A DNA stretch of 64,000 nucleotides. It comes from an uncultured Candidatus Saccharibacteria bacterium. Its GTDB lineage: Bacteria; Patescibacteriota; Dojkabacteria; J137. The position numbers and the translations under genes were made by a program. The stretch covers positions 302,759 to 366,758 of the forward strand of contig CAZLOI010000001.1 in NCBI GenBank assembly GCA_964561155.1. The letters run 5' to 3'. Numbering within the stretch: the first letter of the stretch is position 1; each line of letters starts with the position of its first letter. Of the stretch, positions 2,453 to 19,950 are shown one piece after another. The notes below the pieces were generated by a model. That model saw only the letters and a list, made by a program, of their open reading frames with translations, made no database searches and had not been told where the DNA came from.

Positions 2453-2773
2453 ATGAAACGATATTTGATTGACCCAATCTACTGGTACTTTTTAATCTTT
2501 TTTAAAGATTTCGCTCAAAAGAACTTTCTTAACCAGTATGTATTCTTCTTGAACAAGAGCAATACAATTCCTATGGCTAGAAACCTCTTTATTCCACTAT
2601 ACCAAGATCAAAGTAGTACAGGAAAGAGCTTGGCATTCATCATTAGATCTATTTGGATAGTATATGGGTCAATTGTTTCCACTATTAGGATAATCCCAAA
2701 TCTATTGGTTGCTGTATTTGTGTTGATGCTTCCATTCATTGGAATATTCTTCATACTTAATGCTTTTATATAA
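2453..2773 (+). CDS. Small hydrophobic/membrane protein (106 aa)
   Basis: The ORF ends 11 nt before the ClpB-like gene and has a hydrophobic C-terminal half (IIPNLLVAVFVLMLPFIGIFFILNAFI), so it is probably co-transcribed. Confidence 0.45.
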   Translation: MKRYLIDPIYWYFLIFFKDFAQKNFLNQYVFFLNKSNTIPMARNLFIPLYQDQSSTGKSLAFIIRSIWIVYGSIVSTIRIIPNLLVAVFVLMLPFIGIFFILNAFI

Positions 2774-2784
2774 TTTCAGAAAGT

Positions 2785-5331
2785 ATGTCAAAGAACGTAA
2801 AGATAGGACAACACTACACAACAGATATCTTCTTTGATTTTAATAAGATAGATAATAAAACAGAAGGAGCTTTAGATAGCTTTGACTATAGCTTTGGAAA
2901 GATACTGAGGTACATATCATTTGGACTTGGAATAATACTTTCACTCCTTCTAGTTAGTGGCTACAGACTAAACGTATTGGTAGCATACAAACAAGATTTA
3001 CTTCTTTCTTTGCTAACAGGCATAGCAATCATGCTCTACATATACTCTTTGTACCTACTTAGAGACAAGGAATACTATACAAAGAAGAATAGTTTAGTAG
3101 CGCTAGATTTAAGAAGAGCTACCAAGGTACAGTTCGATGAATACTTTACATACGGAGTTACAAAGTTACTTAGAAACTCAGTTGAGGAGAAATCTACATT
3201 CTTGCTTAATGTGTTTAAGGAACTTGAGCACACTTCTGACTTTAAGAATGTTTTAGAATCAAGGCTAGGAGTACAGTGGGGTAGCTTTAAACAGAGATCT
3301 GAACTATATTTTTCATCAATTGATATAACGTTCAGAGGCAATATACTAAATCTTCTGAACAATCTATTTACAAACACTGTTCACTTTCAAGAAGAGCATA
3401 TAGATACAGACGTACTAATCTATACCTTTATAAAGATGCACTTAGGTAAGGTATTAGCAGAGTTTGGAGTAACCGATGTCGATTTAGAAGGTTTAAAACT
3501 ATATCAGCAGAACGTAATAAAGAAAAAAAGATACTACGAATCATGGAAGATACTTTCTCAGTTGAAACCTAAAGGAGATATCAATCGTTCATTCACATCC
3601 AGGGCAACACCTAGATTGGATGTATACGGGGAAGATCTAACAAGCAAATATTCAAAAGGAAACATTGAACTATCCATTGGTAGGGAAGAAGAGATTCGAA
3701 ACTTAATAAGAGTGCTAATGAAACCTGAAAATTCTAATGTATTGCTAGTTGGTGATCCAGGAACAGGTAAGACAAGATTCCTAAACTATCTTGCAACAAG
3801 AATGGTTGTTGAAGATATGCCTAAGAATTTGCAAGACTACAGACTAATTAAGCTGGACTTAAACAAAGTGTTTAATATGGCTCGTGGTGCTGATGAGTTT
3901 AAGATATTGCTTCAACAGTTATTCAAAGAAGTTGGTAGCTCTGGAAACATTATCCTAATTCTAGAAGAGATCACTTCAATACTAAACGTTAGAGAAGAAG
4001 CTAGGGTAGAAATTACAAATACGTTAATTGGATTAATCAAGAATTCTCAAATCAAGTTGATTGGTACTACGAATAGAAACAACTATAACAAGTTCATTAA
4101 GCCTAACAAGGCAATGGATAGTCAGTTCGAAGTTGTGAACTTTCCAGAACCAAGCAGGACAGTTACCGTTCAGATTCTCCTTGATGAAGCTAGTGATCTA
4201 GAAAAGAAATATGGAGTTACTGTTCAAGTTAACGTAATAAAACGAATAGTTGAGTTCTCTCCAAGAATTGATTCAGACAGATCGTTACCAGACAAGGCAA
4301 TTAGTCTACTGCAAGAAGGTTTGATACTTGCTCAAACACAGGATCTTAGAGTATTAAACGAAAGAACTATAGATGAACTTCTTTCTTCAAAGACTGGAGT
4401 TAAGGTAGGAGCTATATCTGAATCTGAAGTAGATAAGTTAAAGAAACTAGAAGAAGAGATGCATGGAAGAGTTGTTGGACAAGATGCAGCTATTAAGAGT
4501 ATCGCTATGGCTGTGAGACGTTCAAGAAGCGGGTTGAATGCAGATAATAGACCAACAGCATCATTCCTCTTTTTTGGTCCTACAGGAGTCGGTAAGACTG
4601 AATCTGCAAAAACTCTAGCAGATGTATATTTTGGGAACGAGAATCTACTTATAAGAGTTGATATGTCTGAATATCAGGAAGAAAGAAACCTAGAAAGGTT
4701 AATTGGTTACATTGATGAAAAAGGTAACTATCAAGGTGGTTTTCTAACTGAACGAGTTAGATCAAGACCATTTTCTTTGGTATTGCTAGATGAAATAGAC
4801 AAGGCAAACAAGAAGGTTCTAGATTTGTTTCTTCAAGTACTGGATGAAGGATACCTTACAGATGGTATGGGAAGAAAGACTGATTTTAGAAATACGATAA
4901 TCATCATGACAACCAATGCAGGTTCTTCGGAGATTGCTAAATCTACACAAAGTGGTGATGAGTATAAACAAACGTACGAGAAAGCATACGAAGTATTAAG
5001 AGATTCATTCAGAATAGAATTCTTGAATAGGCTTGATAAGATAATCATGTTTAAGTCATTAACGCTTATTGAAATTGAAAAAATTGTTGAGATAATGCTC
5101 TCTGAGTTTAGAGAGAAGTTATTAAGTAAAGGTATTGAACTAGAGTGGGATCAAGATACGTTACTTGGTTTAGCAAAGCTTGGTTACAACCCAGTGTTCG
5201 GAGCAAGAGAACTAAAGAGAGTTATTCAAGAAAATATTGAAGATCAGGTTGCTCAAGCAATCACAGAAGGTAAGATTCTTACAGGAGGCGATGTGAAGTT
5301 TGAAGGATTAAGCTTAGTTACAAAGGAATAG
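2785..5331 (+). CDS. Membrane-anchored Hsp100/Clp-family double AAA+ ATPase (ClpB/ClpV-like); no Clp_N domain, N-terminal 2-TM anchor instead
   Basis: D1 has Walker A LLVGDPGTGKT and an unusual Walker B LILEEIT (EE instead of DE). D2 has Walker A FLFFGPTGVGKT, Walker B LVLLDEIDKA and a sensor-2-like GARELKRVI. The N-terminal ~100 aa contain two hydrophobic helices (FGLGIILSLLLVSGY, LLTGIAIMLYIYSLYLL) in place of the Clp N-domain. No IGF/L ClpP-docking loop is obvious. Confidence 0.8.
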   Translation: MSKNVKIGQHYTTDIFFDFNKIDNKTEGALDSFDYSFGKILRYISFGLGIILSLLLVSGYRLNVLVAYKQDLLLSLLTGIAIMLYIYSLYLLRDKEYYTKKNSLVALDLRRATKVQFDEYFTYGVTKLLRNSVEEKSTFLLNVFKELEHTSDFKNVLESRLGVQWGSFKQRSELYFSSIDITFRGNILNLLNNLFTNTVHFQEEHIDTDVLIYTFIKMHLGKVLAEFGVTDVDLEGLKLYQQNVIKKKRYYESWKILSQLKPKGDINRSFTSRATPRLDVYGEDLTSKYSKGNIELSIGREEEIRNLIRVLMKPENSNVLLVGDPGTGKTRFLNYLATRMVVEDMPKNLQDYRLIKLDLNKVFNMARGADEFKILLQQLFKEVGSSGNIILILEEITSILNVREEARVEITNTLIGLIKNSQIKLIGTTNRNNYNKFIKPNKAMDSQFEVVNFPEPSRTVTVQILLDEASDLEKKYGVTVQVNVIKRIVEFSPRIDSDRSLPDKAISLLQEGLILAQTQDLRVLNERTIDELLSSKTGVKVGAISESEVDKLKKLEEEMHGRVVGQDAAIKSIAMAVRRSRSGLNADNRPTASFLFFGPTGVGKTESAKTLADVYFGNENLLIRVDMSEYQEERNLERLIGYIDEKGNYQGGFLTERVRSRPFSLVLLDEIDKANKKVLDLFLQVLDEGYLTDGMGRKTDFRNTIIIMTTNAGSSEIAKSTQSGDEYKQTYEKAYEVLRDSFRIEFLNRLDKIIMFKSLTLIEIEKIVEIMLSEFREKLLSKGIELEWDQDTLLGLAKLGYNPVFGARELKRVIQENIEDQVAQAITEGKILTGGDVKFEGLSLVTKE

Positions 5332-5344
5332 TTAAAACTAAATT

Positions 5345-5611
5345 ATGCTAGTACAAATACCAAACCTAAGTCAGATTGATACCTTACCTGAACTATTAAA
5401 CTTGTTGATTGGATTAACTCAAAGAGGTTTCTATCTAACATTTCTTTTGTTCCTAATGTATGGAGCATACATGTACATGGTATCAAGAGGTGATGAAGAG
5501 AAGGTTGTTAAGGCAAGAAACATTCTTGTATATGCAATTATAGGTTTTGTAATTGGAGTATTGGCAAACCCATTTTCACAAATTCTTCTTGGCATCTTGA
5601 ATCAAGGTTAA
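5345..5611 (+). CDS. Two-TM hairpin protein, paralog 1 of 7 (no signal peptide; starts directly with the mature-like VQIPN segment)
   Basis: The segment VQIPNLSQIDTLPELLNLL...SRGDEEKVVKARNILVYAIIGFVIGVLA aligns residue-for-residue with the mature part of the next ORF (VQIPNPTNIDSLEELINAV...AQGDDSKVEKAKKIIVTAIIGFVLAVLA). Confidence 0.6.
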   Translation: MLVQIPNLSQIDTLPELLNLLIGLTQRGFYLTFLLFLMYGAYMYMVSRGDEEKVVKARNILVYAIIGFVIGVLANPFSQILLGILNQG

Positions 5612-5698
5612 CTGCTACCGAACGAAGACACGTTAGAATATTCTAATATTGTTAACACTCCTTGCTCATTAGTATTTATTTGTATAGAATATCTTCAT

Positions 5699-6058
5699 AT
5701 GAAAAAATTCTATACAACTCTCGCAATATTATTCACTTACTTTTCAGCATTCGTTTCTCCTGTATTTGCTACAGGTGGTAGTTTTGTACAGATACCTAAT
5801 CCTACAAACATAGATTCACTAGAGGAATTAATTAATGCAGTAGCGAAGTTAATTGTTCCATTATTTATCCTAACTTTCCTTGCAATGCTTTTATTCGGAG
5901 CATTCACATACTTAACTGCACAAGGAGATGATTCAAAGGTTGAAAAAGCAAAGAAGATTATTGTTACAGCTATCATCGGTTTTGTATTAGCAGTCCTAGC
6001 TCCATCTATCGCTAACTTTGTTGCTAGTCTATTAGGAATCGAAGGGTTATCTTTCTAG
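5699..6058 (+). CDS. Secreted two-TM hairpin protein (VirB2/TrbC-pilin-like topology), paralog 2
   Basis: It has a signal peptide (MKKFYTTLAILFTYFSAFVSPVFATG), then TM1, a charged loop (QGDDSKVEKAKK) and TM2. It is homologous to ORFs 5345, 7263 and 7714. Confidence 0.7.
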   Translation: MKKFYTTLAILFTYFSAFVSPVFATGGSFVQIPNPTNIDSLEELINAVAKLIVPLFILTFLAMLLFGAFTYLTAQGDDSKVEKAKKIIVTAIIGFVLAVLAPSIANFVASLLGIEGLSF

Positions 6059-6059
6059 A

Positions 6060-6698
6060 ATGAAGAAAATATTTTTAGTCACTTTCTTGGTTATAGGATT
6101 CTTTGTAGCATTCCCTACAACAACGCATGCACTTACGGGAAATCCAAAAGCATGTGAGTCACCTGGTGATATACCCAATATCTGCAGAGACAACTATGCT
6201 CCTGATAATGCTTGTAATATTGCAAGAATTGCAAACCCTGAAATTGATTGCTGTATGAATTATTGTCCAGAGTTTCCGAGTACTAGGTACAATGCCGCTG
6301 GAGATTGTGCTTCAGGTAATGAAGCAGCCTGTGAAGCAGCAAGTGTATTCAGTAGCTTAAATATTTTTGGAACTAGGATTCAATATACTCCAGACAAGAT
6401 TCCTTCGTTAATTCAGTTAGCAATTTCCGCAGCGCTAGCAGTCGTTTCATTCTATGCATTATTTAGAGGAATGTTCCTATATGCAATTAAGAGACCTAAT
6501 ACAACAGATGCAGCAGAGGTTGCAAAGATTAATAAAGAGTTTGGAAACATTATTGTTGGGTTTGTACTAGCGTGGTCAGTGATATTTATAGTAGAGTTTG
6601 TTATGAGATTATTAGGGTTACCTTCATTGTCTCAGATTAATGTAAATACTTTAGATGATCCTGCAAATCCAGGTTCAAATGTAATTATTATTCAATAG
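6060..6698 (+). CDS. Secreted Cys-rich protein with a C-terminal two-TM hairpin, paralog 3 (divergent)
   Basis: It has a signal peptide, a ~70-aa ectodomain containing about 10 Cys (CESPGDIPNICRDNYAPDNACNIARIANPEIDCCMNYCPEF...), then two hydrophobic helices separated by the loop KRPNTTDAAEVAKINKEFGN. The topology matches its neighbours, but the GD[DE]xK motif is absent. Confidence 0.55.
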   Translation: MKKIFLVTFLVIGFFVAFPTTTHALTGNPKACESPGDIPNICRDNYAPDNACNIARIANPEIDCCMNYCPEFPSTRYNAAGDCASGNEAACEAASVFSSLNIFGTRIQYTPDKIPSLIQLAISAALAVVSFYALFRGMFLYAIKRPNTTDAAEVAKINKEFGNIIVGFVLAWSVIFIVEFVMRLLGLPSLSQINVNTLDDPANPGSNVIIIQ

Positions 6699-6699
6699 T

Positions 6700-7260
6700 A
6701 TGAAAAGATTAGGTCTAGGAATGATATTGGTATTGTTCTTGTACACCAAAGCAATGGCGCAGGGTATAGGAGATGTGGGAACAGAAGAGTGGGGATTACA
6801 AGCAATTAGGATTCCAATCTTTTCAACTTTGTTTACTGATCTTGCAAACTACAATACTGTTTTATCTTGGATTACATTCGCAGGAAGTATTATAGTTTCT
6901 GGTGTAGTTATCTACTGGATATACAAGATCTTAAGAGCTGGTATTCAAGCAATTCAAGCTGAAGGAGATGATGCAAAGATTACGGATGCTAGATTAAGAC
7001 TACAGGCAGCGTTGTCTGGAGTTGCATTCACTTTGTTGGTTCCAATAGTATTAAGCTTTGTAGGAGTTATATTTGGTTTTGGAACTATGTTCCAGTGGCC
7101 AAAGTCTTTCTCTGGATGTACGCAGCCTAATCAAGGAAATGAATTCTACCCACAATCAGAAGGAGGTTACCAGTATTATTTCCAAGCTTTTCTTCAGGAA
7201 GGAAGTGAAGAAGCTGCTACAGCTGTATGTAACCCAGTTGATGCAAACTTAGATAGATAA
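6700..7260 (+). CDS. Secreted two-TM hairpin protein, paralog 4
   Basis: It has a signal peptide (…KAMAQG), then TM1, the loop AIQAEGDDAKITDARLR, and TM2. The C-terminal tail contains two Cys. Confidence 0.65.
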   Translation: MKRLGLGMILVLFLYTKAMAQGIGDVGTEEWGLQAIRIPIFSTLFTDLANYNTVLSWITFAGSIIVSGVVIYWIYKILRAGIQAIQAEGDDAKITDARLRLQAALSGVAFTLLVPIVLSFVGVIFGFGTMFQWPKSFSGCTQPNQGNEFYPQSEGGYQYYFQAFLQEGSEEAATAVCNPVDANLDR

Positions 7261-7262
7261 AT

Positions 7263-8166: not shown

Positions 8167-8172
8167 TAATGA

Positions 8173-8886
8173 ATGAAGATTTGTGCATTTCTAATAATAG
8201 GAATCATATTCCAATCTCTTACAAGTCCTGTTGTCGCACAAACACAGGACTTTGATTTTTCAGGCAATAATCCTGACTCCTACCAGTGCTTCGATGGAAG
8301 CGGACAACCAGATACCACATCAAATATTGTAAAAGATGAGTTACGGGGATTCTTTTTCTGCGATACGAATAATAATGGCTTCTATAATGCTGGTGAAGAA
8401 CAAGCAGTTTTAAGGCCTCCAAGGCTTCAGCAAATTGAAGTCTGGTTCGTAAGAATCATTTATGTGGTTTGGGCACTAGTTGGAGCATACTCGTTCTATC
8501 TTCTAGTAGTTCTTGGATATCAGGTAATGATCTCTCGAGGAGACCCAACATCCCTACCAAAGATTAGACAAAGAATTATTAACTACATGATTGGTTTTGC
8601 TTTAGTATTTCTAGCTATTCCAATATTAGATACGTTCTTTAGACTGCTTGGTATAAATAAAACAGTCAGCTGTTACGATGTTCAGATGCCTGGGTTCCAA
8701 TTCTTCTTTACAACACTATGTAGCGGTACAGATCCTTGTTCCTTCACTGCAGCTCAGCTAGCAGATGGTATTGTATGTCCGATCAGGAATGAAAGGAGAG
8801 CATGTGATACTGGTGCCCAAGGAGAATTTGAAATCTTCCTTTGTGACCCAGAAGCCCAGATTTGGACAAGTATAGGAACTCAATAG
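8173..8886 (+). CDS. Secreted Cys-rich protein with a central two-TM hairpin, paralog 7 (largest ectodomains)
   Basis: It has a signal peptide (…SPVVAQT) and an N-terminal ectodomain with two Cys, then TM1, the loop MISRGDPTSLPKIRQR, and TM2. The C-terminal ectodomain carries 7 Cys (SCYDVQMPG…LCSGTDPCSF…VCPIRNERRACDTG…FLCDPE). Confidence 0.6.
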   Translation: MKICAFLIIGIIFQSLTSPVVAQTQDFDFSGNNPDSYQCFDGSGQPDTTSNIVKDELRGFFFCDTNNNGFYNAGEEQAVLRPPRLQQIEVWFVRIIYVVWALVGAYSFYLLVVLGYQVMISRGDPTSLPKIRQRIINYMIGFALVFLAIPILDTFFRLLGINKTVSCYDVQMPGFQFFFTTLCSGTDPCSFTAAQLADGIVCPIRNERRACDTGAQGEFEIFLCDPEAQIWTSIGTQ

Positions 8887-8887: not shown

Positions 8888-10390
8888 ATGAACCTAAAAC
8901 TAAAGTCATATAAAATTAATGACGATGTGTACATCGGTGACTATTCTGTATTAAAAACTTCAGACTCATTCATCGCATCCCTTAGAAACCTAGATACCTC
9001 AATATCAGATTCATCAACACATACAATTGAACTAGATATCAATGGCACTATCTGCACGATTACAAAACTTGATGAAACAATAACTGTAATATTCAATGAT
9101 GCTTCATACACTTCTTTAAACGAACTATTCCAGACTGAATTTAAAACTAACTTTAATTCAAATACTTGGAAAGAGCATTTCCTAGATATAAATGAATCAG
9201 GTATTTCTGATGTTGCTTCCTTTAATACATTCTTGTCTGGATTAACAAAGGAAGTTGTTGATACCAATGCACCAAAAAAAGAATTAGATAACCTAATATT
9301 ACAAAGCTTGGAGTCCGCAACAGATGAAAACAAGAAAGCATTGCAACGCTTTCAGGAGTTAACAGCAAAGATTTATACATCTGAAGAAAAAGTGGATGTA
9401 TACAACAACTATCAAAGTATTGTTAAAGCAAAGAAGGAGGAAAAGGATTCAATCCTGAGAGAGAAGGAACGATTGGTACAAGTACTATCTAGTTCAAAAG
9501 AGTTAATCGAATCAAAGGCGAGACTGGAGAATGAAGTTAACGTTGTATTGGAAGGGTCTGATCCTGAAGTACTTAAGAATACAATCACACAAGTTAAAGA
9601 TACTAGAATGAATCATCTTGTAAACTACATGCAAGAAGTGAAAGGTCAACACAAGTACGATGCTGAAGAGAAGGAAAGAGATTTGATGGTACCAAAAGCT
9701 TTTATAGTTATTCTACTAGTTCAATCGCTGGTATCCATTTCTTTGTTCTTTGTAACAGGGGATGTAATAGCGTTTATGTATTTGATTCTTGGTTGGATCC
9801 TAGCAATAGGTGGTGGGATTCTATTTCAAATCTATGCATACGATACAATAGCAGCTCAATTTGATAGCTCAGATGAATCTCAAGATACAGCTCCAAAGCC
9901 ACGAAGAGAATTCACGCTTAAGGTAGATGAGACACAAGACAAAGATTTAATAAAACATGCGTGGGTTGAAGCACTAAGAAGAGATCTACAAGAAGTTGTG
10001 AGTTCATTAAACCAAAGACTTGGCTCTATGACATACGAGGAACTTCAAGATAGGATGAAAGAGTTAGAAACAAAGGGAGTATTATTAGATGAAGAGATAA
10101 AAAAGCTTGATGGAGAGAAGATCGATCAAGATGATTACTATAAATTTAGAAGAGAATTAGATATCTATAGTATCGAAAGAGAGAATCTGCTGGTCAATTT
10201 GGAAGGAAAAGTAGACAATGGACTAATAGAGAATATAAAATATAGTATTAGCCGAATTTCTGACGCCAAGAAAGTTTCAGAAACAAAGCAAATAAAGTTG
10301 CCCTTTATTATTTTTAACCTTAAGGAAAAAGTAGCTTGGATAAAAGATTTACAGGTACAAAACAGTACTCAAGTATTGTTCTTCGAATAA
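8888..10390 (+). CDS. Coiled-coil membrane protein (500 aa) with a central 2-TM hairpin flanked by cytoplasmic coiled-coil domains
   Basis: Hydrophobic helices sit at about aa 272-320 (AFIVILLVQSLVSISLFFVTG / FMYLILGWILAIGGGILFQIYAY). The flanks are rich in heptad-like E/K/L repeats. No catalytic motif was found. Confidence 0.55.
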   Translation: MNLKLKSYKINDDVYIGDYSVLKTSDSFIASLRNLDTSISDSSTHTIELDINGTICTITKLDETITVIFNDASYTSLNELFQTEFKTNFNSNTWKEHFLDINESGISDVASFNTFLSGLTKEVVDTNAPKKELDNLILQSLESATDENKKALQRFQELTAKIYTSEEKVDVYNNYQSIVKAKKEEKDSILREKERLVQVLSSSKELIESKARLENEVNVVLEGSDPEVLKNTITQVKDTRMNHLVNYMQEVKGQHKYDAEEKERDLMVPKAFIVILLVQSLVSISLFFVTGDVIAFMYLILGWILAIGGGILFQIYAYDTIAAQFDSSDESQDTAPKPRREFTLKVDETQDKDLIKHAWVEALRRDLQEVVSSLNQRLGSMTYEELQDRMKELETKGVLLDEEIKKLDGEKIDQDDYYKFRRELDIYSIERENLLVNLEGKVDNGLIENIKYSISRISDAKKVSETKQIKLPFIIFNLKEKVAWIKDLQVQNSTQVLFFE

Positions 10391-12156: not shown

Positions 12157-12794
12157 TGAATCCAAATACACCACAAGACAACAAGAAACTTGAGATGATC
12201 AAAAAGATGGATCAGATAGTGCCAAAAGCATCTGGAGGTTTCTTTGGTTCTGTTCAATACAGACCTAATATGAGTTTCGAAGGCCAGAACAGGAACGAGA
12301 AGGTCTATATTATGGCAAGAAGACACTGGTTAACAAATGTAGGGTGGATTATAAATAATGTCATTTATATAATGCTACCGCTTCTAGTTGGATTACTATT
12401 TAATGTATTCGATCCAAAGCTACCACCAGTAAATGGTCAAGTTTTCTCAGTTCTTGTACTTGGATATTATTCATTGGTATTTACAAATATCTTTAAGAAC
12501 TTTGTAGATTGGTATTTTGATATATATTTTGTAACTAACGAAAGAGTTATGGATGTTATCTTTAAGCCATTCGCTTCGTATCAAATTGAAGAGATTCCAT
12601 TGAATAGTATTGAAAGTGTTAGAGAGAAGACTCCTGGAGTTTTGGCTGCAATATTCAATTTTGGAAACATTACAATTACAACTGAAGCCCATGACAGATC
12701 AATGGTATTCCCTTATATTTCAAAACCTACAAAGGTTCGCGATATTATTTCAGACTTAGCATTTGTTGCTCGAACATTTAACAATGGAAATTAA
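12156..12794 (+). CDS. Membrane protein with 2 TM helices and a bacterial PH (bPH_2/YdbS-like, DUF304) domain
   Basis: Two hydrophobic helices (LTNVGWIINNVIYIMLPLLVGLLF; VFSVLVLGYYSLVFTNIF) are followed by DWYFDIYFVTNERVMDVIFKPFASYQIEEIPLNSIESV, which is typical of membrane-flanked bPH domains. Start codon overlaps the stop of the previous gene (ATGA). Confidence 0.55.
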   Translation: MNPNTPQDNKKLEMIKKMDQIVPKASGGFFGSVQYRPNMSFEGQNRNEKVYIMARRHWLTNVGWIINNVIYIMLPLLVGLLFNVFDPKLPPVNGQVFSVLVLGYYSLVFTNIFKNFVDWYFDIYFVTNERVMDVIFKPFASYQIEEIPLNSIESVREKTPGVLAAIFNFGNITITTEAHDRSMVFPYISKPTKVRDIISDLAFVARTFNNGN

Positions 12795-13002
12795 CACATC
12801 AACAGTATTCAGTTTCTTAAAAATATTTGCGATTGTAATCGCATTATTTCATTTGCTTGCTGGGTTATATGTTACTAGGCAAGTAACAAGAATGAATAAA
12901 ATAGTTAAGACTAGAAATGGACCTTTCATATTATTAGTAGCCCTAGCATACATAATCGTACTGCTGTTAGTACTTCTACTAATAATCTCGATACAGGTTT
13001 GA
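12763..13002 (+). CDS. Small 2-TM membrane protein (79 aa)
   Basis: Two strongly hydrophobic helices; overlaps the end of the bPH gene, suggesting operon coupling. Confidence 0.4.
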   Translation: MLLEHLTMEINTSTVFSFLKIFAIVIALFHLLAGLYVTRQVTRMNKIVKTRNGPFILLVALAYIIVLLLVLLLIISIQV

Positions 13003-13031: not shown

Positions 13032-15794
13032 ATGGCAATTAAAGCAGACTTTATAACAGGTAAGCAATCGTTCGGCAACTGGGCAGGGGTTTACGCCTTT
13101 GTACCTGAATCTGGAGAGAGCAAGGAAATGTTCGTTTCTATACGAATATCCGTAGAGAGTGACGAATTTAATTTAGAAAATGCAGGAAAACTTCTTTTAG
13201 ATGAACTTCAAGGTATATATTTCTCAGACAAAAAAGCATATTCAGATCAGGTGAATAGACTTGAGAATGCATTGTGGAAGATGAAGGGAAAGATGGACTA
13301 CATTCTTTCGAAGGAACAATCCTTAATGGAGAAAGGTTTAGATATAGAACTTGCTGTGTGTGTTTATGATGATGTCTTTGCATATACTGCGGTTATAGGT
13401 GAAAGCAAGATAAAGATCTATAGAGAAGAAAAGTTAATAGATATTTCAGACGCATTGTCAGACGCTGCTAATTCAGGTTTCTTTAAAACAGGAAGCCTAG
13501 AATTGGATCCAGAAGACAGAATATTCCTAATCACATCTAAAGCTGCTAGAGAATTCTCTGACAAAGAGATTGAAACAGGAGCTAGGTTACTTGATTTAGG
13601 TAGATTAAGAGCAAGCTATCCTGATTCATCAGAAGGTACTGCTGCTGTAATGATATACAAGGAAGGAGCTACTGCATTAGCTGTTGAAGAGAATATACAA
13701 GCTAATGATCAAGGTATGCAAGCTACGCAATCAGTGGATGGAGCATCAGAAGATAGGAAAATGGATGGTGGCACATATGGAGATCAGAATATTTCTTCAG
13801 GGGCAACAGAAGCTGTATCTCAAACAGTATCTGAAGTAACAACAATAGCTATGATGGGAGAAAAGGCTAAGCAGTTCTCAAGAGTTGCAAAGACTAATCT
13901 TGTTAAAGCAGGTAACTTTACAATAGGAAAACTAAAAGTATTTAGAAACAAAGTAGAGGATTATAGAAACAAGAGAAATGGAGTAGCAATGAATGATGAG
14001 TCAATTAACGATGAAGAAGTAATGTCAAATGATATGGGAGATGAGATTGAACCAGTTGCTCAGAGAGTAAGCAATACTGTTGCACCACAACTTTCAGATT
14101 CAAGATTCTATGACGAGTCAGAAGACGAGATGGAACAACCAGTTGTAGCACCTGTTCAGAATATGGAAACACCAGTGCAAGACTTTGAACCAGAATACGA
14201 TACAGAAGGCAATTTGATTCCACAGTACAAGCCATTCAAGGATGAAGAAGAAGATCTTTCTGTTAACGAAGTTAATTCGGACACAGAGGAAATATACGAT
14301 GATGTTTACGAAGAAGTGCAAGATGAACCAGTAGCTCAATTTGGAGCTAGTACTATGAGACAAAGCCAAAAGGCTCCACAAGGCAGTAGATTCGATAGTG
14401 TAAAGGGAAGCTTTAATAATGTAAACAAAGAGAAATTATCAGGAATAGTTGCCAAGGCTTTAGACTTACTAAAGAGACTTGGAAGTATGCTTTTGGAATT
14501 AACTCTTTGGTTAATTGAGTTATTCAAGAAAGAAATACTAGGTGTTGGTGAGAATAGACGCGATAGATTGTCTAGAGCAAAGAGAAGAAGAAGAAACAGA
14601 ATCATATTAGTTGCTGTAGTAATTATCTTGTTCTTAATAATAAGTAATTCGATTAGAACAGCACAGGATGCTAGATTCCAACAGGAACTATTAGATACAG
14701 CAAGAACAAAGGTATCTGAATTCCAGAATACACATACTTCACTAGATGCAAACATTCAAACAGCAAAGGCTTCGGGCGATGTAGCAATTCAGAATCTAAT
14801 TGCAGACTTTGATAGATTGAACGCAGAAGTTAATGTACAAAAGAGAGAAGGTTTATTAGAAGAAGAGTTCACAACAATTCAGAACGATATTCAATTCTCT
14901 AAAGATGAGCTACTAGATATTATCGCTATCCTAACACCTCAGGTATTGGTAGATGTTGGTAGAAGCTACCCAGACGCAAATCTTGCAGACATTGAATACT
15001 CAAATGGAGGTATCTTTATTAGTGACCAAGGAAGAAACGTTATCTACAGAGTAGGTACAGCATCTTTAAATGGTGTTGCTCAGAGCTTTGTTACTGGATT
15101 AACTCAACCATATGCTCTAGTTAGAAATGTAGATGGAGACATTGTTTTCTATGACAACGATACTACTTCAGCACTTGGTATTGTAGATTATGAATCTGCG
15201 GAAGTTTCTAGAATGCCAGGTTTAACTCCAAGTAGTATAGGAAGAGTTACTGAATCTGCGCTATATACAGGAAATGATTCTTTATATGAAGTTCGAAATT
15301 CTACTACTCAGATCTTTAAAAGAGACAAGAGTGGTTCTGGATATGTAAATGGCGGAGCAACTCAATCAGGAGACTTTAATTCAAACTGGAGAGTAGATTC
15401 TGATTTTGCTAACGCAGTAGACATAGCAGCACCTTACGAAATCTATATGCTGATCAAGGGTCAAGGTATCAAGAGATATTTTGCTAGAGAAGCAAACACA
15501 CTAACATCTGATCTATTCAGTAACATATCTCAAACAGATCTAGCTGCTGTACAGAATGCTAACTCGATGGATGCAGTCGATTCATTCGTAGCTGTTGGAG
15601 ATGCAGCAAACAAGAGAGTGCTACTATTTACAATAGACGATACTCCTCAGAAAGGATTAACTCTTTTCAAGCAATTCGTATATCGAGGATCTGAAAATGT
15701 ATTCAACGATCTAGATGAAGTTGTAATCGTTCCAAGCGAAAGTTCAATCTACGTTCTTGATAACCTAAAGGTTATCAAACTACCACTTCAATAA
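13032..15794 (+). CDS. Large single-pass membrane protein (920 aa): cytoplasmic N-domain (possibly PP2C-like), acidic linker, TM, extracytoplasmic beta-propeller-like C-domain
   Basis: The TM lies at about aa 525-545 (RIILVAVVIILFLIISNSI) after a basic RRRRNR stop-transfer. The C-terminal 380 aa carry repeated blade-like motifs (GIFISDQGRNVIYRV, DIVFYDND, SLYEVRNS, NKRVLLFTIDD, SSIYVLDNL). The N-terminal 230 aa (…ELAVCVYDDVFAYTAVIGESKIKIY…DRIFLITSKAAREFSD) weakly recall the PP2C/SpoIIE fold. Confidence 0.55.
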   Translation: MAIKADFITGKQSFGNWAGVYAFVPESGESKEMFVSIRISVESDEFNLENAGKLLLDELQGIYFSDKKAYSDQVNRLENALWKMKGKMDYILSKEQSLMEKGLDIELAVCVYDDVFAYTAVIGESKIKIYREEKLIDISDALSDAANSGFFKTGSLELDPEDRIFLITSKAAREFSDKEIETGARLLDLGRLRASYPDSSEGTAAVMIYKEGATALAVEENIQANDQGMQATQSVDGASEDRKMDGGTYGDQNISSGATEAVSQTVSEVTTIAMMGEKAKQFSRVAKTNLVKAGNFTIGKLKVFRNKVEDYRNKRNGVAMNDESINDEEVMSNDMGDEIEPVAQRVSNTVAPQLSDSRFYDESEDEMEQPVVAPVQNMETPVQDFEPEYDTEGNLIPQYKPFKDEEEDLSVNEVNSDTEEIYDDVYEEVQDEPVAQFGASTMRQSQKAPQGSRFDSVKGSFNNVNKEKLSGIVAKALDLLKRLGSMLLELTLWLIELFKKEILGVGENRRDRLSRAKRRRRNRIILVAVVIILFLIISNSIRTAQDARFQQELLDTARTKVSEFQNTHTSLDANIQTAKASGDVAIQNLIADFDRLNAEVNVQKREGLLEEEFTTIQNDIQFSKDELLDIIAILTPQVLVDVGRSYPDANLADIEYSNGGIFISDQGRNVIYRVGTASLNGVAQSFVTGLTQPYALVRNVDGDIVFYDNDTTSALGIVDYESAEVSRMPGLTPSSIGRVTESALYTGNDSLYEVRNSTTQIFKRDKSGSGYVNGGATQSGDFNSNWRVDSDFANAVDIAAPYEIYMLIKGQGIKRYFAREANTLTSDLFSNISQTDLAAVQNANSMDAVDSFVAVGDAANKRVLLFTIDDTPQKGLTLFKQFVYRGSENVFNDLDEVVIVPSESSIYVLDNLKVIKLPLQ

Positions 15795-15864
15795 GGCAGG
15801 CTAGCCAAATAGCGTATTCAATACCCTTTCTCTATGGTATTATATTGCTATTTAAATCAAAACA

Positions 15865-16320
15865 TTGAAAATTCTTTCATCAAATAAAAAAGCATACTAT
15901 GACTATGAGGTCCTCGATAAATATGAGGCAGGAATTTCATTGCTTGGTTGGGAAGTAAAATCAATTAAAAATACGAACTTCAATATAACAAATGGCTACA
16001 TAGTACCAAGGGACAATGAACTTCTAATGGTTGGAATGAGGGTAGGTTTATTGCAAGGTTCCTTTGAACAAGACAAGAACAGGGAAACTAGGGATAGAAA
16101 GCTTTTATTAAAGAAATCCGAGATCTTTACTATAATGCACAAGGTTAAGACTAAAGGACTAACAGTAGTTCCTTTGGAAGTATATTTAAATGATCGAGGT
16201 TTAATCAAAGTAGATATAGCGATTGTAAAAGGTAAGAAAAAATATCAGAAAAAGGATAAGATAAAGGAGAGGGATCAAATTAGATCAATCGAAATAGATA
16301 GAAAATCATACAGTATATGA
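15865..16320 (+). CDS. smpB: SsrA-binding protein SmpB
   Basis: NKKAYYDYEVLDKYEAGISLLGWEVKSIK…ELLMVGMRV…DRKLLLKKSEI…KGLTVVPLEVYLNDRGLIKVDIAIVKGKKKYQKKDK matches the SmpB family pattern. No tmRNA (ssrA) is visible next to it. Confidence 0.85.
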   Translation: MKILSSNKKAYYDYEVLDKYEAGISLLGWEVKSIKNTNFNITNGYIVPRDNELLMVGMRVGLLQGSFEQDKNRETRDRKLLLKKSEIFTIMHKVKTKGLTVVPLEVYLNDRGLIKVDIAIVKGKKKYQKKDKIKERDQIRSIEIDRKSYSI

Positions 16321-16883
16321 ACGACACACATCAAAGCCAAGCCATAAAGGATCTAATAATATATCTAGAGAAATTTGGATTTAAATATCTAGGACCTGGA
16401 GAAAACGGAGATGTATTATTCACAGCTCCAAATGGACAAGCAGTTTCTGGAGAAATAGCATACAGATTTGTAAAGACTCAGTTAGAAGATCCAGCAAAGA
16501 CATCTACAGGAGGTACTGAAGCGATGCCTGCAATGCCTAATGTAATACCGACTAACCTAGATTCAGGATTTGATTCAAAGATAGAAGTAGAGAAAAGTCT
16601 AGATGAAGCAAACAAGATTGAAAAGGCGAAGGAGCAAGCATCAGAAGATGCAAATTCTTTAAGCGATTTGAAAGTAAAGAACTCTTCACCAAGAATGAAG
16701 ATTGGAAATACAACAATTCCTCTTCCATTCGGAGATGGCTTTCTACCAAAATCTTTTAGACCAGACGACACAGATAGTATTCAAGATTTCATATCTAAGA
16801 AGGCTTCTGCAAGTCATAGTGATCCAGCCGCATGGCTTAGAGTACTATGGGAAAAGTTTTTGAAGGAATTGTCATCGAAATAA
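16317..16883 (+). CDS. Hypothetical protein (188 aa)
   Basis: Its ORF overlaps the smpB stop and sits directly upstream of the VirB4-like ATPase; no motif was recognised. Confidence 0.45.
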   Translation: MNDTHQSQAIKDLIIYLEKFGFKYLGPGENGDVLFTAPNGQAVSGEIAYRFVKTQLEDPAKTSTGGTEAMPAMPNVIPTNLDSGFDSKIEVEKSLDEANKIEKAKEQASEDANSLSDLKVKNSSPRMKIGNTTIPLPFGDGFLPKSFRPDDTDSIQDFISKKASASHSDPAAWLRVLWEKFLKELSSK

Positions 16884-16910
16884 ATATTTTTTTCCTGTAA
16901 AATAAGTCGT

Positions 16911-19358
16911 ATGTTTAGCTCAGCCGTAATCGGAAATATTCTTATTGTATTCTTAATACTAGTTCTAGCCGGTGTTATTATCTTCAGCTTGTATTCCTGG
17001 CTCTTGACCGAATTAAAAGAAAGAGTCTTAATGGACAAGTCTTTAAACCTAGTATTCTACGAAGTTAGACTAGCAAGAAACAGCGAAGTAGAGATAAAGG
17101 CTATGGAACAGTTGTTCTCAGGACTAACTGGATTCTCTGAAGATCTTAAAGGAATGAAAGGGTTCATAGGAGCTAGAACTTTTGTAAGTTTTGAACTCGT
17201 CGCATATTATCAAAGTATTAGATTCTACGTAGTTTGTCCTAAAAAGATATCAAGTGTTGTTGATAGATTAATCAACGGAACATACCCTAGTGCTGAGATA
17301 ATGAAAGTTAAAGAGTATAACTTGTTCCCTGATCAGGGAAGTGTTTCATACGCTAGTTTGGAAGTAGACAAGGATTGGAAGATACCATTTCAAACATATG
17401 AAGAACTACCAGTAGATAGTTTGGCTACCCTTACAGATGTAATGAGTAAGCTAGGACCAGGTGAAAGTGCTGCTTTCCAGATTGTAATTGCTCCAGCAGG
17501 AGGAGACTGGATTAAATCATCAAAGGAATATGCAAAGAAGATTAGAGAAGATGCGCAGCCAAAGACTGCAAAGGAAGGAGAGCCTGCACCTAAACCTGCA
17601 AAACAGAAGGTGCCAGATGAGACTCTTTCATTAATTGAACGTAAAGCTGAGAAGAATGGTTTCTATACAGATCTTCGTGTTGTAGTTTGTTCTCCGGACA
17701 AGTTTTCTGCAGACAATCATATGACCAATATATTAAGTACCTTCGATCAGTTCTCAAAGATTGGAGGAAGCAAGCTTAAGAAGACCAAAGACAAGAACAA
17801 ACTAAAGACGATATCTAGAGATTTTATATACAGGCTGCCAAGGAACAAGATGGTTTTGAATGCAACGGAGCTTGCAACACTGTACCATTTCCCAAGCAAG
17901 AGTATTCAGGCTCCACATATTAAATGGTTGTTGTCCAAGAAGCTACCTGCTCCTGACTTCACTACAAATCAGTGGGAGAAGGACTATATGTATATTGGAA
18001 AGAATACTTTCAGAGGATCGGAGAAAGAGATATTCTTAAAACCTGATTCAAGACTTAGACACTTCTATATAATCGGACAAACTGGTTCTGGTAAGTCTGG
18101 TTTCATGCTTTCCATGATGGTTAGAGATATTAAGATGGGACATGGTTGTGCATATATAGACCCACACGGATCAGATGCAGAGAAGATATTGCAGCAGATT
18201 CCACCAGAGAGAATAGAGGATGTGATTGTTTTTGATCCATCAGATATCGAAAGACCTATGGGTCTTAATATGTTGGAATTTAAAACTCCTGCACAGAAGA
18301 CTTTGGTTACCAATGAGATGCTTAATATCTTTGATAGTTTGTATAACCTAAAGGTTACTGGAGGACCTATGTTCGAGCAGTACTTTAGATATGGAATCAT
18401 GCTTTTAACAGAGGATGAGGAATCGGGATCAACTCTTCTAGAGATACCTAAGCTATTCGCGGATGAAGGCTACAGAAACTATAAACTATCTAAGTGTAAG
18501 GATCAGGAAGTTATAGACTTCTGGAGAAAGCAGGCAGAGGCAGCCGGAGGAGAAGCTTCCCTTAAGAATATTGTTCCATACGTTGTTTCAAAGCTTGCTC
18601 CTTTCTTAACTAACGCATATCTAAGACCTATTGTTGCTCAACAGAAATCTACTTTAGATTTCAGAGAGATTATGGACAACAAGAAGATTCTAATTGCAAA
18701 ACTTTCTAAAGGACGTATTGGAGAGATGAATGCAAATCTTCTAGGTATGATCTTAATTGGTAAGTTACTTGTTGGAGCGCTAGAGAGAGACGAGATTCCA
18801 GAGGATGACCGTATTCCTTTCTATCTATACATCGACGAGTTCCAGAACTTCTTAACAGATGGTATCCAGATTATTCTTTCTGAGGCTAGAAAATACAAGC
18901 TTTCCCTAACCATCGCTCACCAGTTCCTTGGTCAACTAACAAGACAGGGTGGAGATACAAAGATTAAGGATGCTGTTTTTGGTAACGTTGGTAACAAGGC
19001 TATTTTCAGAGTTGGAGAGGAGGATTCACCGTTCCTAAGGAAAGTATTGGATGGAGAATTGGAGGAATCAGATCTACAACAGATTGAAAACTTAATGGCT
19101 TTTGTAAAGATTCAGGTTGATGGGAAACCAACTCCTGCTTTTACGCTCACAGCGAGATATGGGGAGTCTCCATACGATATGATGTCAGAACCCAACCCAC
19201 AGCTTTCTAACCTCATTAAGCAGGTCTCTAGGCTCAAATATGGCAAGGATGCATCTCTTGTAGAGAATGAAGTTAAGTTAAGGGGTAGTTTCATTAAAGA
19301 GAAGACAGAGGAAACCAAGAAACCAGGAGGAATGTTTGGTGGGTTCCCAGGATTTTAA
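16911..19358 (+). CDS. T4SS-type P-loop ATPase, VirB4/TrbE/CagE-like (alternatively VirD4/TraG-like), with an N-terminal TM anchor
   Basis: An N-terminal 28-aa hydrophobic helix is followed by a Walker A at about 48% of the length (HFYIIGQTGSGKSG) and a Walker B with downstream Gln about 245 aa later (PFYLYIDEFQNFL…EARKYKLSLTIAHQFLGQL). The size (815 aa) and the Walker A position fit VirB4 better than VirD4. This is a motif-memory assignment; no search was run. Confidence 0.65.
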   Translation: MFSSAVIGNILIVFLILVLAGVIIFSLYSWLLTELKERVLMDKSLNLVFYEVRLARNSEVEIKAMEQLFSGLTGFSEDLKGMKGFIGARTFVSFELVAYYQSIRFYVVCPKKISSVVDRLINGTYPSAEIMKVKEYNLFPDQGSVSYASLEVDKDWKIPFQTYEELPVDSLATLTDVMSKLGPGESAAFQIVIAPAGGDWIKSSKEYAKKIREDAQPKTAKEGEPAPKPAKQKVPDETLSLIERKAEKNGFYTDLRVVVCSPDKFSADNHMTNILSTFDQFSKIGGSKLKKTKDKNKLKTISRDFIYRLPRNKMVLNATELATLYHFPSKSIQAPHIKWLLSKKLPAPDFTTNQWEKDYMYIGKNTFRGSEKEIFLKPDSRLRHFYIIGQTGSGKSGFMLSMMVRDIKMGHGCAYIDPHGSDAEKILQQIPPERIEDVIVFDPSDIERPMGLNMLEFKTPAQKTLVTNEMLNIFDSLYNLKVTGGPMFEQYFRYGIMLLTEDEESGSTLLEIPKLFADEGYRNYKLSKCKDQEVIDFWRKQAEAAGGEASLKNIVPYVVSKLAPFLTNAYLRPIVAQQKSTLDFREIMDNKKILIAKLSKGRIGEMNANLLGMILIGKLLVGALERDEIPEDDRIPFYLYIDEFQNFLTDGIQIILSEARKYKLSLTIAHQFLGQLTRQGGDTKIKDAVFGNVGNKAIFRVGEEDSPFLRKVLDGELEESDLQQIENLMAFVKIQVDGKPTPAFTLTARYGESPYDMMSEPNPQLSNLIKQVSRLKYGKDASLVENEVKLRGSFIKEKTEETKKPGGMFGGFPGF

Positions 19359-19374
19359 TACTTAATTCATACAT

Positions 19375-19950
19375 ATGAACCCCCCGCTAGAATCAACACA
19401 AGAGTTTGATGTTCGGAAAGAACATGAAGACTACAAGAAGTTTTTGCGAGAAGTTGTCTTGGACGCTATTAACAATAGGAAAAAGATTGATATGAGTTTT
19501 GATGAAAAGTTAAGTGAAGAGGATACGAATGAAAGAAAGTCAAAAGCAAGCAGCTTAAAGAACTTGGCTGATGAAGATTTTATTAATTTTGGTGATAGTT
19601 ATTCCTACCAGCCTCATCTTGTTTGTGTAAGAGATTCGCATAACTATGCAGTGCTTATAAAAATAGCAGTTGATATATTGCTTGAAAAAGGTGCTATTGA
19701 CACAAAAGAATTGAGAGATAGTATGGAATACAATCTTGAACATGAGTTCGAACATCATGTACAAGCTTTAGGTAAAGTTAAATTAGAATACTGTCTAGAG
19801 TTCTTTGAGGATATTAAGACACGTCGGTTTAGTATAAGGCCAGGAGTTAGACTGCTCGGGGTGACTACGCTAGGAGTGTATAAGGATATCTTAACTGCAC
19901 CATCAGAGCTTTCCCACGGTGATAAGGAGATAGGGGAAACCATAGGTTAA
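19375..19950 (+). CDS. Hypothetical protein (191 aa)
   Basis: Last ORF before the tRNA/integrase junction; acidic, with no recognisable motif. Confidence 0.45.
   Translation: MNPPLESTQEFDVRKEHEDYKKFLREVVLDAINNRKKIDMSFDEKLSEEDTNERKSKASSLKNLADEDFINFGDSYSYQPHLVCVRDSHNYAVLIKIAVDILLEKGAIDTKELRDSMEYNLEHEFEHHVQALGKVKLEYCLEFFEDIKTRRFSIRPGVRLLGVTTLGVYKDILTAPSELSHGDKEIGETIG

Follow-up and report, generated by a model that had tools for sequence, protein, structure and literature searches.

A stretch of 64,000 nucleotides from an uncultured Candidatus Saccharibacteria bacterium (GTDB lineage Dojkabacteria, J137; contig CAZLOI010000001.1, positions 302,759 to 366,758), hereafter called the window, contains at 2453-19950 a block of 18 closely packed open reading frames (ORFs), all on the + strand and separated by gaps of -55 to +91 nt. 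The block, in which the genes are numbered g1 to g18 with smpB between g14 and g16 (Table 1), had been taken in an original prediction for a single undescribed envelope-spanning secretion or pilus-like apparatus, possibly acquired on an integrative element. The present analysis suggests that the stretch probably consists of three units lying side by side, each independently conserved, and is neither one new machine nor a mobile island. Unit A (2453-5331) comprises a small membrane protein and a transmembrane (TM)-anchored Hsp100 paralogue, unit B (5345-8886) is a tandem array of pilin-like genes, and unit C (10336-21356) contains SpoIID, bPH, DUF5657, g14, smpB, g17, Xer and DivIC genes. The gene order and strand given in the original prediction were reproduced, every listed ORF being present, as were the borders (groEL on the left, tRNA-Ile(UAU) and a tyrosine recombinase on the right) and the position of smpB within the block.

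Hsp100 Paralogue and Its Small Partner

The product of g2 carries Pfam matches to AAA, AAA_lid_9, AAA_2 and ClpB_D2-small, corresponding to two AAA+ modules (D1 and D2), and two TM helices are predicted at residues 40-58 and 72-90. The description of this protein as membrane-anchored with a double AAA+ architecture is therefore sound, while the label "unfoldase" is not established, because the protein has no M-domain, no loop for docking ClpP and no tyrosine in the D1 pore loop. It scored 496 bits against TIGR03346 (ClpB; cut-off 1232) and 399 bits against TIGR03345 (ClpV; cut-off 885), and ClpA was also far below its cut-off. No Pfam match to Clp_N was obtained, the M-domain columns were empty when g2 was aligned with canonical ClpB, and the ClpP-docking (I/M)G(F/L) loop was not found in the g2 alignment, while the ClpC-like gene of the window has MGF there. 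The D1 pore loop reads NMARGADEFK against the canonical AGAKYRGEFE, without the tyrosine, and the D2 loop is altered. Thus, g2 has neither the features that mark ClpB (Clp_N, M-domain and pore-loop tyrosines) nor the ClpP loop that marks ClpA and ClpC. In a motif census of the family, the D2 Walker motifs were intact in 86/86 members, D1 was degenerate in most members outside Dojkabacteria (Walker A GKE, Walker B PD), the D1 pore-loop tyrosine was absent throughout, and most members also lacked the aromatic residue of the D2 loop. Since the window already holds a canonical ClpC-like gene (38512-40998) with Clp_N, a short M-domain and the MGF loop, g2 is an extra, specialised copy. The D1 pore loop of that ClpC-like gene is ARLRGD rather than the usual KYRGE, so the D1 tyrosine is absent there too.

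Directly upstream of the Hsp100 paralogue lies g1, whose relatives are small TM proteins that combine an F-x-P-(W/L/M) motif with a C-terminal hairpin, and for which no Pfam, NCBIfam or PHROG match was found. Among the related loci (designated L001, L002 and so on), g1 orthologues precede the Hsp100 gene in L001-L004, g1-like genes do so in L005, L006, L008 and L031, and the two are fused in protein P0055 of L007. Full-length g2 orthologues were found in named Dojkabacteria down to 39% identity, with remoter TM-anchored relatives elsewhere in the candidate phyla radiation (CPR). By the names that close orthologues bear, the window belongs to Candidatus Dojkabacteria (WS6), one of the classes of Patescibacteria/CPR. 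Residues 1-300 of the Hsp100, used as the sole query against a word-indexed protein database, gave no match, and an exhaustive phmmer search with g1 returned 55 representatives, all close relatives; the breadth of the g1 family was therefore measured with hidden Markov models (HMMs) on the loci.

A metagenome scan with the family-specific region of the Hsp100 (a narrow alignment) confirmed 350 relatives, and neighbours were counted in the 80 best loci. In these, a g1 HMM match was present in 73/80, a pilin array lay within 10 kb in 1/80, and the g17, g14, SpoIID and bPH families were found in 0/80 by family HMMs; instead, the neighbours were housekeeping genes such as PolX, MFS, NUDIX, IF3, UDG and ArgRS. 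Across all 85 Hsp100-unit loci outside the Dojkabacteria block, a pilin array was likewise within 10 kb in a single case, and family HMMs detected the ATPase, the propeller protein, SpoIID and bPH in none (0/85), although one phmmer match to a g12-like bPH gene was found in L005. These housekeeping neighbours, together with the near-zero count of pilins and the lack of the ATPase, indicate that the pair of g1 and Hsp100 is, as judged from gene neighbourhoods, an autonomous CPR unit. Its role would most likely be that of a chaperone or remodeller at the membrane, acting on membrane proteins in general and placed here after groES-groEL. The gene smpB occurs a few kb from the TM-anchored Hsp100 in 20/80 metagenome loci (within L095-L165) as well as inside the Dojkabacteria block, which may reflect shared ancestral synteny or a trans-translation link.

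The converse comparisons agree. L079, from a deep Dojkabacteria lineage, has a pilin array without the Hsp100, with a helicase/nuclease-type gene upstream of the pilins, and the Hsp100 unit was found in only 1/80 of the listed ATPase-anchored loci (L031), which is about the chance expectation for 20-kb windows in genomes of ~0.8 Mb. In L031 (2666-8188), a contig from outside Dojkabacteria, a VirD4-type ATPase is followed by a g1-like gene and then by a TM-anchored Hsp100. No description was found in the searchable literature either of a membrane-anchored ClpB in Patescibacteria or of an Hsp100 paralogue that is anchored in the membrane, spread across CPR, accompanied by a dedicated small partner and largely dead in its first ring.

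Pilin Array

With an HMM built from g3 and g4, the seven highest-ranking ORFs of the 64-kb window were exactly g3-g9 (E 1e-68 to 0.05; next 0.54), and these seven are therefore true paralogues. They have a pairwise identity of 14-45%, and their alignment shows a common loop motif, S/A-x-G-D-x-x-K, between two hydrophobic helices. The gathering score of PF18895 (T4SS_pilin) was passed by g3 and g4, and g9 had a weak match. Seven tandem hairpin paralogues are thus present as predicted, whereas a signal segment, claimed for all of them, was recognised in five and is lacking in g3 and g7. The AlphaFold2 (AF2) model of g4 has helices at 41-72 and 78-111 with the GDDSK loop between them, and the hairpin has pLDDT values of 80-88. 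Foldseek with this model gave no significant match, the best geometric one being a conjugative pilin of Aeropyrum (8dfu, not significant); a short hairpin is an uninformative query for this method.

Small size, a signal peptide and two hydrophobic helices characterise VirB2/TrbC-type pilins, and the PF18895 matches of g3 and g4, the TrbC match of g4 and the AF2 hairpin place the array among them. It also resembles the pilin arrays of Patescibacteria, which consist of 2-11 tandem, divergent, chromosomal PF18895/VirB2-like genes. Orthologues of g6 were found in L001-L004 and L010, and those of g7 in Dojkabacteria loci. The original prediction had named holins among the families that the hairpin proteins might prove to match; a holin or other phage-protein identity is unsupported, because PHROGs gave no match for the pilins, nor did it for g1, g13 or g10.

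Individual members of the array differ in their outfit. The product of g3 is 45% identical to that of g4 without having its signal segment, and an upstream extension of the ORF is impossible. Truncation after duplication, or a variant form that is not exported, may explain this. Outside the hairpin, Cys-rich extensions occur in g5 (about ten Cys in the N-terminal extension) and at both ends of g9, and they may be surface or adhesin modules held together by disulfide bonds. The following gene, g10, has the two-TM topology stated earlier and no match in any family library (Pfam, NCBIfam, PHROGs, PADLOC); among the loci examined its orthologues are confined to L001-L004 and L010, a part of Dojkabacteria, and are absent from L079, and it perhaps belongs with the pilin unit.

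Envelope Genes and the ATPase Neighbourhood

The first gene of unit C, g11, encodes a SpoIID/LytB protein as had been predicted, and its residues 39-256 have weak SMC matches. SpoIID is not an obligatory part of the unit, since some blocks in Dojkabacteria, such as that of L002, lack it. The product of g12 is a membrane protein with a PH domain, as proposed, but the match is to bPH_3, not to bPH_2. The large protein g14 is indeed a single-pass protein (TM 523-541) with a beta-propeller ectodomain (NHL, six blades). Its profile from Dojkabacteria orthologues matched the PknD sensor (1rwi, 1e-10) and Pizza designs (3e-24) in the PDB, and the N-terminal domain has a weak PP2C match (PstP, E 0.05). 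These likenesses suggest a receptor-like protein rather than a channel component.

A genome scan with the g17 profile yielded at least 80 CPR loci, and neighbour counts refer to the 80 listed. Near g17, g14-like genes occurred in 14/80, including Levybacteria and five other CPR loci, SpoIID in 7, bPH in 7, smpB in 9, Xer in 19, DivIC in 16 and DnaX in 15, and pilin genes were present in three Dojkabacteria and one Parcubacteria locus only. Pilins in other classes were sought with an HMM made from Dojkabacteria pilins, which detected the Parcubacteria pilins at 1e-20. SpoIID adjoins the ATPase family in L010, L018, L028, L037, L038, L045 and L079, and the g12-like bPH gene comes after SpoIID in Dojkabacteria and Levybacteria loci. 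In the Levybacteria loci L037, L038 and L045, the order is ATPase, one further gene, SpoIID, bPH, a small gene and a g14-like gene; smpB is found downstream in L045 and on the other strand in L037, and was not seen in L038. This arrangement is largely the unit C set of Dojkabacteria in permuted order. As far as gene content can tell, unit C is thus an envelope and ATPase neighbourhood common to Dojkabacteria and Microgenomatia, in which the order is permuted.

The recombinase of the window matches the g17-adjacent Xer cluster (19 loci) at 1e-83, and the gene beyond it matches the HMM of the 16-locus DivIC cluster, whose representative has a Pfam DivIC match of 8e-12. An Xer gene on the opposite strand and a DivIC-like gene lie downstream of the ATPase in 16-19/80 listed loci, from Dojkabacteria, Woesebacteria, Levybacteria and Daviesbacteria, and in other CPR classes their place beside the ATPase is taken by DnaX. 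In several CPR classes the ATPase has a g14-like gene beside it, in some cases encoded on the other strand (L034, L039, L049, L066, L075, L037, L038, L045), and this suggests that the g14-like protein and the VirD4-type ATPase form a functional pair. The recurrent linkage of g17, Xer, DivIC and g14 gives testable hints on the role of the abundant CPR "orphan coupling protein".

The ATPase g17 itself had been called VirB4-like, which holds only at the level of the fold, the ATPase domain resembling TrwB and the C-terminal domain of VirB4 to the same degree, and FtsK far less. By sequence, it is of the VirD4 or type IV coupling protein (T4CP) kind with an N-terminal DUF8128, not VirB4, and the accompanying claim that no VirD4 is present appears to be wrong. 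Its Pfam signatures are TraG-D_C, DUF87 and TrwB. More than 4,500 homologues (E<=1e-5) across CPR carry DUF8128, TrwB_AAD_bind, T4SS-DNA_transf and TraG-D_C, and are named by NCBI "type IV secretion system DNA-binding domain-containing" or "TraM recognition domain-containing". The NCBIfam TraD, TrbC and CD1115 models match g17 better than VirB4_CagE (14 bits against a 643-bit cut-off), all being far below cut-off, and the family profile matched DotL and TrwB in the PDB and no VirB4. In a published survey, the VirB4 of Patescibacteria is a DUF87-type protein beside TrsD, and the T4CP is listed separately. On the strength of the homologue domains, the NCBIfam and PDB profiles and this separate VirB4, g17 is filed in the VirB4/VirD4 superfamily as a putative VirD4-type (T4CP-like) protein whose N-terminal domain is novel. 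Its signatures and names are those of coupling proteins, yet the NCBIfam equivalogs score far below cut-off and the N-terminal architecture is different. No relevant literature description of DUF8128 was found.

Directly upstream of the ATPase, g16 has no family match and has orthologues only in close Dojkabacteria. Small genes occupy the same position in other lineages, but a conserved g16-like partner of the ATPase is unsupported, because hhalign detected no homology between them and g16.

Type IV Secretion Components and Synteny

Type IV secretion systems (T4SSs) occur widely in Patescibacteria, where they are related to the monoderm MPF-FATA class and have no relaxase (PMC12102498). Tandem arrays of 2-11 VirB2-like pilins, with PF18895 among the profiles and a mean identity of 25%, have been described (PMC12102498; Wang 2023, Quinonero-Coronel 2025), and pilins were near virB4 in 1135/1948 assemblies (survey of Quinonero-Coronel et al. 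2025). Homologues of VirD4-type coupling proteins were reported in 96% of Patescibacteria genomes, mostly far from virB4 (PMC12102498). In Southlakia epibionticum, a T4SS cluster and a six-pilin array are essential for epibiotic growth (PMC10633639; reviewed in PMC12857230), while the t4cp homologue is dispensable (PMC12102498). The lineages named as T4SS-bearing include Dojkabacteria, of which two assemblies carry the flag "Presence of VirB4: Yes". The claim that the locus is undescribed is therefore not upheld, since T4SS loci without relaxase, divergent VirB2-like arrays and distant coupling genes have already been published, Dojkabacteria included (PMC10633639; PMC12102498; PMC12857230). 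A Clp/AAA+ or SpoIID component is not mentioned in these published accounts (PMC12102498, PMC10633639, PMC12857230).

The VirB4-family ATPase, the only ubiquitous T4SS protein, was used here to define membership in these systems. No VirB4-family ATPase was found among the large ORFs of the window by profile scores or by profiles against the PDB; g17 is the sole T4SS-type ATPase there, and, with no other large P-loop ATPase of its kind, the signature protein VirB4 does not lie in the window. No Pfam or NCBIfam match to VirB6, PrgH, PrgI, VirB3, VirB8 or TrsD was obtained for the ORFs of 2453-19950, from which very divergent versions could escape, and no protein in this interval has five or more predicted TM helices. 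In related loci, virB4, trsD and virB6 were absent within 10 kb of the block ends, as they are from the window. Neither T6SS families (TssB/C, Hcp and VgrG, as context for ClpV) in any ORF scanned nor PilB, PilC, PilM, prepilin peptidase or N-methyl pilins in 2453-19950 were detected. The original statements that VirB6, VirB8 and PilB/C/M genes are missing from the block, and that it is not a textbook T4SS, type IV pilus (T4P), type VI (T6SS) or type VII (T7SS) secretion system, thus stand, and T4SS-related, pilus-type envelope components are present.

Within Dojkabacteria, the arrangement is strongly conserved. In L001-L004 the order is groES, groEL, g1, Hsp100, five or six pilins, g10, SpoIID where present, bPH, DUF5657, g14, smpB, g16 and g17, and it is kept at 39-49% Hsp100 identity; groES-groEL is directly upstream of g1 and Hsp100 in L001, L002 and L004. 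In L079, five pilins directly precede SpoIID, bPH, g14, smpB, g17, Xer and DivIC.

Proposed Mechanism and Alternative Explanations

If the three units work as their families suggest, the pilins would be inserted by Sec and held in the membrane as helical hairpins, and a T4SS-type fibre might be polymerised from them by a VirB4/TrsD/VirB6/VirB3 core, which published surveys report in Dojkabacteria and which would here have to lie outside the window. The Cys-rich extensions of pilins 3 and 7 could provide variant surfaces for host-cell contact, the SpoIID enzyme might open the wall locally, the VirD4-type ATPase would act as a membrane-tethered hexamer moving a DNA or protein substrate, and the propeller protein may sense or bind something outside the cell. 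In the one species in which this has been tested, the T4SS and pilin array of Patescibacteria are essential for epibiotic growth. The locus contributes an arrangement from Dojkabacteria: the array stands apart from the VirB4 core and is joined to a wall hydrolase, a propeller protein and the near-universal VirD4-type ATPase of CPR. The parts most worth following are the CPR-wide TM-anchored Hsp100 unit and the linkage of g17, g14, Xer and DivIC, which may possibly be more useful than the claim originally made.

Several points weigh against the division into three independent units. The gaps between g1 and Hsp100 (11 nt) and between Hsp100 and the first pilin (13 nt) are short, and five lineages of Dojkabacteria keep g1, Hsp100 and pilins adjacent, at Hsp100 identities as low as 39%; such conserved tight adjacency is the appearance expected of a functional operon too. 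The Dojkabacteria copies of Hsp100 retain an intact D1 Walker A and the aromatic residue of the D2 pore loop, both of which the other CPR copies lack, and this may be a sign of a lineage-specific role. In addition, the pilin HMM, being built from Dojkabacteria, could overlook very divergent arrays in other classes, and we infer a VirB4, TrsD and VirB6 elsewhere in this genome from a published table for other Dojkabacteria. The strongest form of the opposing view is the single machine of the original prediction, in which the Hsp100 would extract or unfold pilins or substrates while the ATPase, hydrolase and propeller protein complete a VirB4-independent, envelope-spanning apparatus. Besides the co-directional, tightly spaced genes and the retained motifs, it can draw on the lack of VirB4 in the window and around related blocks. 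VirB4 dislocates VirB2 from the membrane, and this task could in principle pass to an AAA+ motor. However, the g1/Hsp100 unit is CPR-wide with one pilin array and no ATPase nearby in 85 loci, it accompanies the ATPase at about chance frequency (1/80 listed loci), L079 has the pilins and unit C without it, the family lacks the D1 pore-loop tyrosine with most members having a dead D1 ring and no D2 aromatic, and the position directly after groES-groEL fits a chaperone cluster. A single apparatus including the Hsp100 is thus not upheld, and we regard it as quite improbable. That the Hsp100 serves the pilins in this Dojkabacteria sub-clade is unlikely as well, and only a slim chance is given to its recruitment there, with its TM partner, as a motor for VirB2-like pilins that forms a machine without a neighbouring VirB4 together with the DUF8128/VirD4-type ATPase, as hinted by the operon-like spacing, the adjacency down to 39% identity and the retained D1 Walker A and D2 aromatic.

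Unit C might also serve cell division, in chromosome handling and septal wall remodelling (compare FtsK-XerCD and SpoIIIE-SpoIID), with the pilins merely adjacent. Xer and DivIC adjoin the ATPase more often than any other genes in Dojkabacteria and Microgenomatia, with DnaX elsewhere, FtsH lies downstream in the window, and the ATPase family is near-universal in CPR, mostly far from virB4, its Southlakia t4cp homologue being dispensable (PMC12102498). Nevertheless, gene neighbourhood is weak evidence in small streamlined genomes, and in Dojkabacteria the pilin array and unit C stay together even in the absence of the Hsp100 (L079). A replacement of FtsK by g17 is weakened by its far lower fold similarity to FtsK than to VirB4/TrwB and by the annotated ftsK that the CPR member TM7x has of its own (PMC10768705). 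A division role for unit C therefore appears unlikely. The tyrosine recombinase, adjacent to a tRNA gene at the right-hand border, had raised the possibility that the block is cargo of an integrative element inserted at tRNA-Ile(UAU). However, this recombinase is a member of the Xer-type cluster found, along with DivIC, beside the g17 ATPase family in 16-19 loci from several CPR classes. A search of 1-22000 showed no direct repeat of the tRNA, and the GC content is 0.33-0.39 within the block against 0.36-0.39 in the flanks; without an att repeat or a GC shift, the block is not an island. The synteny from groEL to DivIC across Dojkabacteria at 39-49% protein identity and the housekeeping gene smpB inside the block also stand against insertion, which is hardly credible. 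Three units side by side remain the preferred reading of the stretch.

Gene Inventory and Neighbouring Features

The features of the block and its borders are collected in Table 1.

Table 1. Genes and borders of the Dojkabacteria block, with coordinates in the window.
Feature	Coordinates	Strand	Evidence and remarks
groEL	38..1384	+	5' end lost at window edge; lies upstream of the block in Dojkabacteria as a conserved neighbour
g1, 106-aa membrane protein, C-terminal TM hairpin (unit A)	2453..2773	+	TM prediction, orthologues
g2 (ClpB*), 848 aa, TM-anchored double-AAA+ Hsp100 paralogue (unit A)	2785..5331	+	Pfam, TM prediction
g3, pilin-like 1, 88 aa, without signal segment	5345..5611	+	PF18895 T4SS_pilin 6e-8, above gathering score
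g4, pilin-like 2, 119 aa, signal segment and helical hairpin	5699..6058	+	PF18895 4.5e-14; TrbC/VirB2 1e-3
g5, pilin-like 3, 212 aa, Cys-rich N-terminal extension	6060..6698	+	in-window pilin HMM 3e-4; alignment
g6, pilin-like 4, 186 aa, C-terminal extension	6700..7260	+	in-window HMM 8e-3; GDDAK loop
g7, pilin-like 5, 119 aa, without signal segment	7263..7622	+	in-window HMM 0.05, rank 7 of all ORFs; GDEGK loop
g8, pilin-like 6, 150 aa	7714..8166	+	in-window HMM 5e-6; alignment
g9, pilin-like 7, 237 aa, Cys-rich extensions at both ends	8173..8886	+	PF18895 6e-4; in-window HMM 5e-6
g10, 500 aa, two TM, long charged helical regions	8888..10390	+	TM prediction; no family match
g11, signal-anchored, coiled-coil and SpoIID/LytB peptidoglycan hydrolase (unit C)	10336..12156	+	SpoIID 1e-12 (Pfam); TIGR02669 4e-36
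g12, membrane protein with bacterial PH domain (unit C)	12156..12794	+	PF14470 bPH_3 4.7e-5
g13, 79-aa two-TM DUF5657 protein (unit C)	12763..13002	+	PF18901 1e-8; same position in L002, L004
g14, 920 aa: PP2C-like cytoplasmic domain, acidic linker, one TM, NHL beta-propeller ectodomain (unit C)	13032..15794	+	
smpB, trans-translation factor, housekeeping, inside unit C	15865..16320	+	Pfam SmpB 1.7e-44
g16, 188-aa soluble protein directly upstream of ATPase	16317..16883	+	no family match
g17 (T4CP*), 815 aa: N-terminal TM helix, DUF8128, VirD4/TrwB-type P-loop ATPase, all-alpha insertion	16911..19358	+	
g18, 191-aa orphan ORF	19375..19950	+	no relatives detected in any fetched locus; no family match
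tRNA-Ile(UAU)	19958..20031	-	ARAGORN and Rfam
Xer-type tyrosine recombinase	20083..20937	-	XerD/XerC/XerA models 1e-29 to 1e-33, below cut-off
DivIC/FtsB-like septum protein	20979..21356	+	DivIC-cluster HMM 9e-20; no direct Pfam match

Promoter and terminator scans gave counts at chance level and were uninformative on transcription units. A defence system was rejected, because PADLOC on the block proteins returned merely generic AAA+/HerA likeness (DolB, mad8) and no partner genes. Between groEL and g1, 1407-2374 holds a DUF4145 protein (weak PADLOC PD-T7-4 match) and a 75-aa ORF; in L001, L002 and L004 groEL is directly followed by g1, and the interval therefore resembles a small local insertion. 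Upstream of groES, relatives carry a PilM/FtsA-like gene and a gene of ~700 aa without known family (L002 3285-6702; L004 3740-7093), and the window begins downstream of that position. Further along the window, a 536-aa ORF without Pfam match (24152-25762, - strand) lies between FtsH and PolA. A split ComEC, with the channel domain at 50136-51512 (- strand) and a metallo-beta-lactamase-fold gene at 49279-50139 (- strand), is located ~30 kb from the pilin array. Neither ComEC nor the PilM-like gene of the relatives belongs to the block.

Comparison with Known Systems

As in Hsp100/Clp proteins (ClpB, ClpA, ClpC and ClpV), g2 contains two AAA+ modules, a D2-small domain, and the Walker A/B motifs and arginine finger region of D2. 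It differs from them in its N-terminal TM hairpin, which replaces a soluble start, in the lack of a Clp_N match, an M-domain and a ClpP loop, and in its D1 ring, where Walker B reads EE in Dojkabacteria, while most other CPR copies have the degenerate forms PD for Walker B and GKE for Walker A. In addition, a small TM protein always accompanies it, as a partner or fused to it, and T6SS genes are lacking.

The sensor PknD shares the propeller with g14 (1e-10), and PstP weakly resembles its N-terminal PP2C-like domain; unlike in PknD, the propeller of g14 is joined to this PP2C-like domain, whose match is weak (E 0.05), and not to a kinase. Similarly, g11 resembles SpoIID/LytB proteins and VirB1 hydrolases in placing a secreted or anchored peptidoglycan-cleaving domain among envelope genes, which corresponds to the functional role of VirB1, while it belongs to another fold family than VirB1 (SLT/CHAP).

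With VirD4, TrwB, DotL and Cagbeta, as well as VirB4, g17 has in common a membrane-tethered P-loop fold, an all-alpha insertion, TraG-D_C and TrwB_AAD_bind. Whereas VirD4 has a two-TM domain and VirB4 its own N-domain, g17 has one TM helix and a DUF8128 of ~290 aa with no structural match. Unlike coupling proteins and VirB4, moreover, it adjoins no relaxase or VirB4, and the NCBIfam VirD4, TraD and VirB4 models score far below cut-off.

The closest counterpart of the whole locus is the T4SS of Patescibacteria (Southlakia SEML1_0006-0019), with which it shares a tandem array of divergent PF18895/VirB2-like genes, seven here against 2-11, a chromosomal location without relaxase, a nearby wall hydrolase that is not of the VirB1 type, a VirD4-type ATPase in the genome and a monoderm CPR bacterium as its bearer. 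It differs in that no VirB4, TrsD, VirB6 or VirB3/PrgI lies in or near the array, a separation that is common but a minority, and in that the array stands between a TM-anchored Hsp100 and a set of SpoIID, bPH, propeller and T4CP genes.

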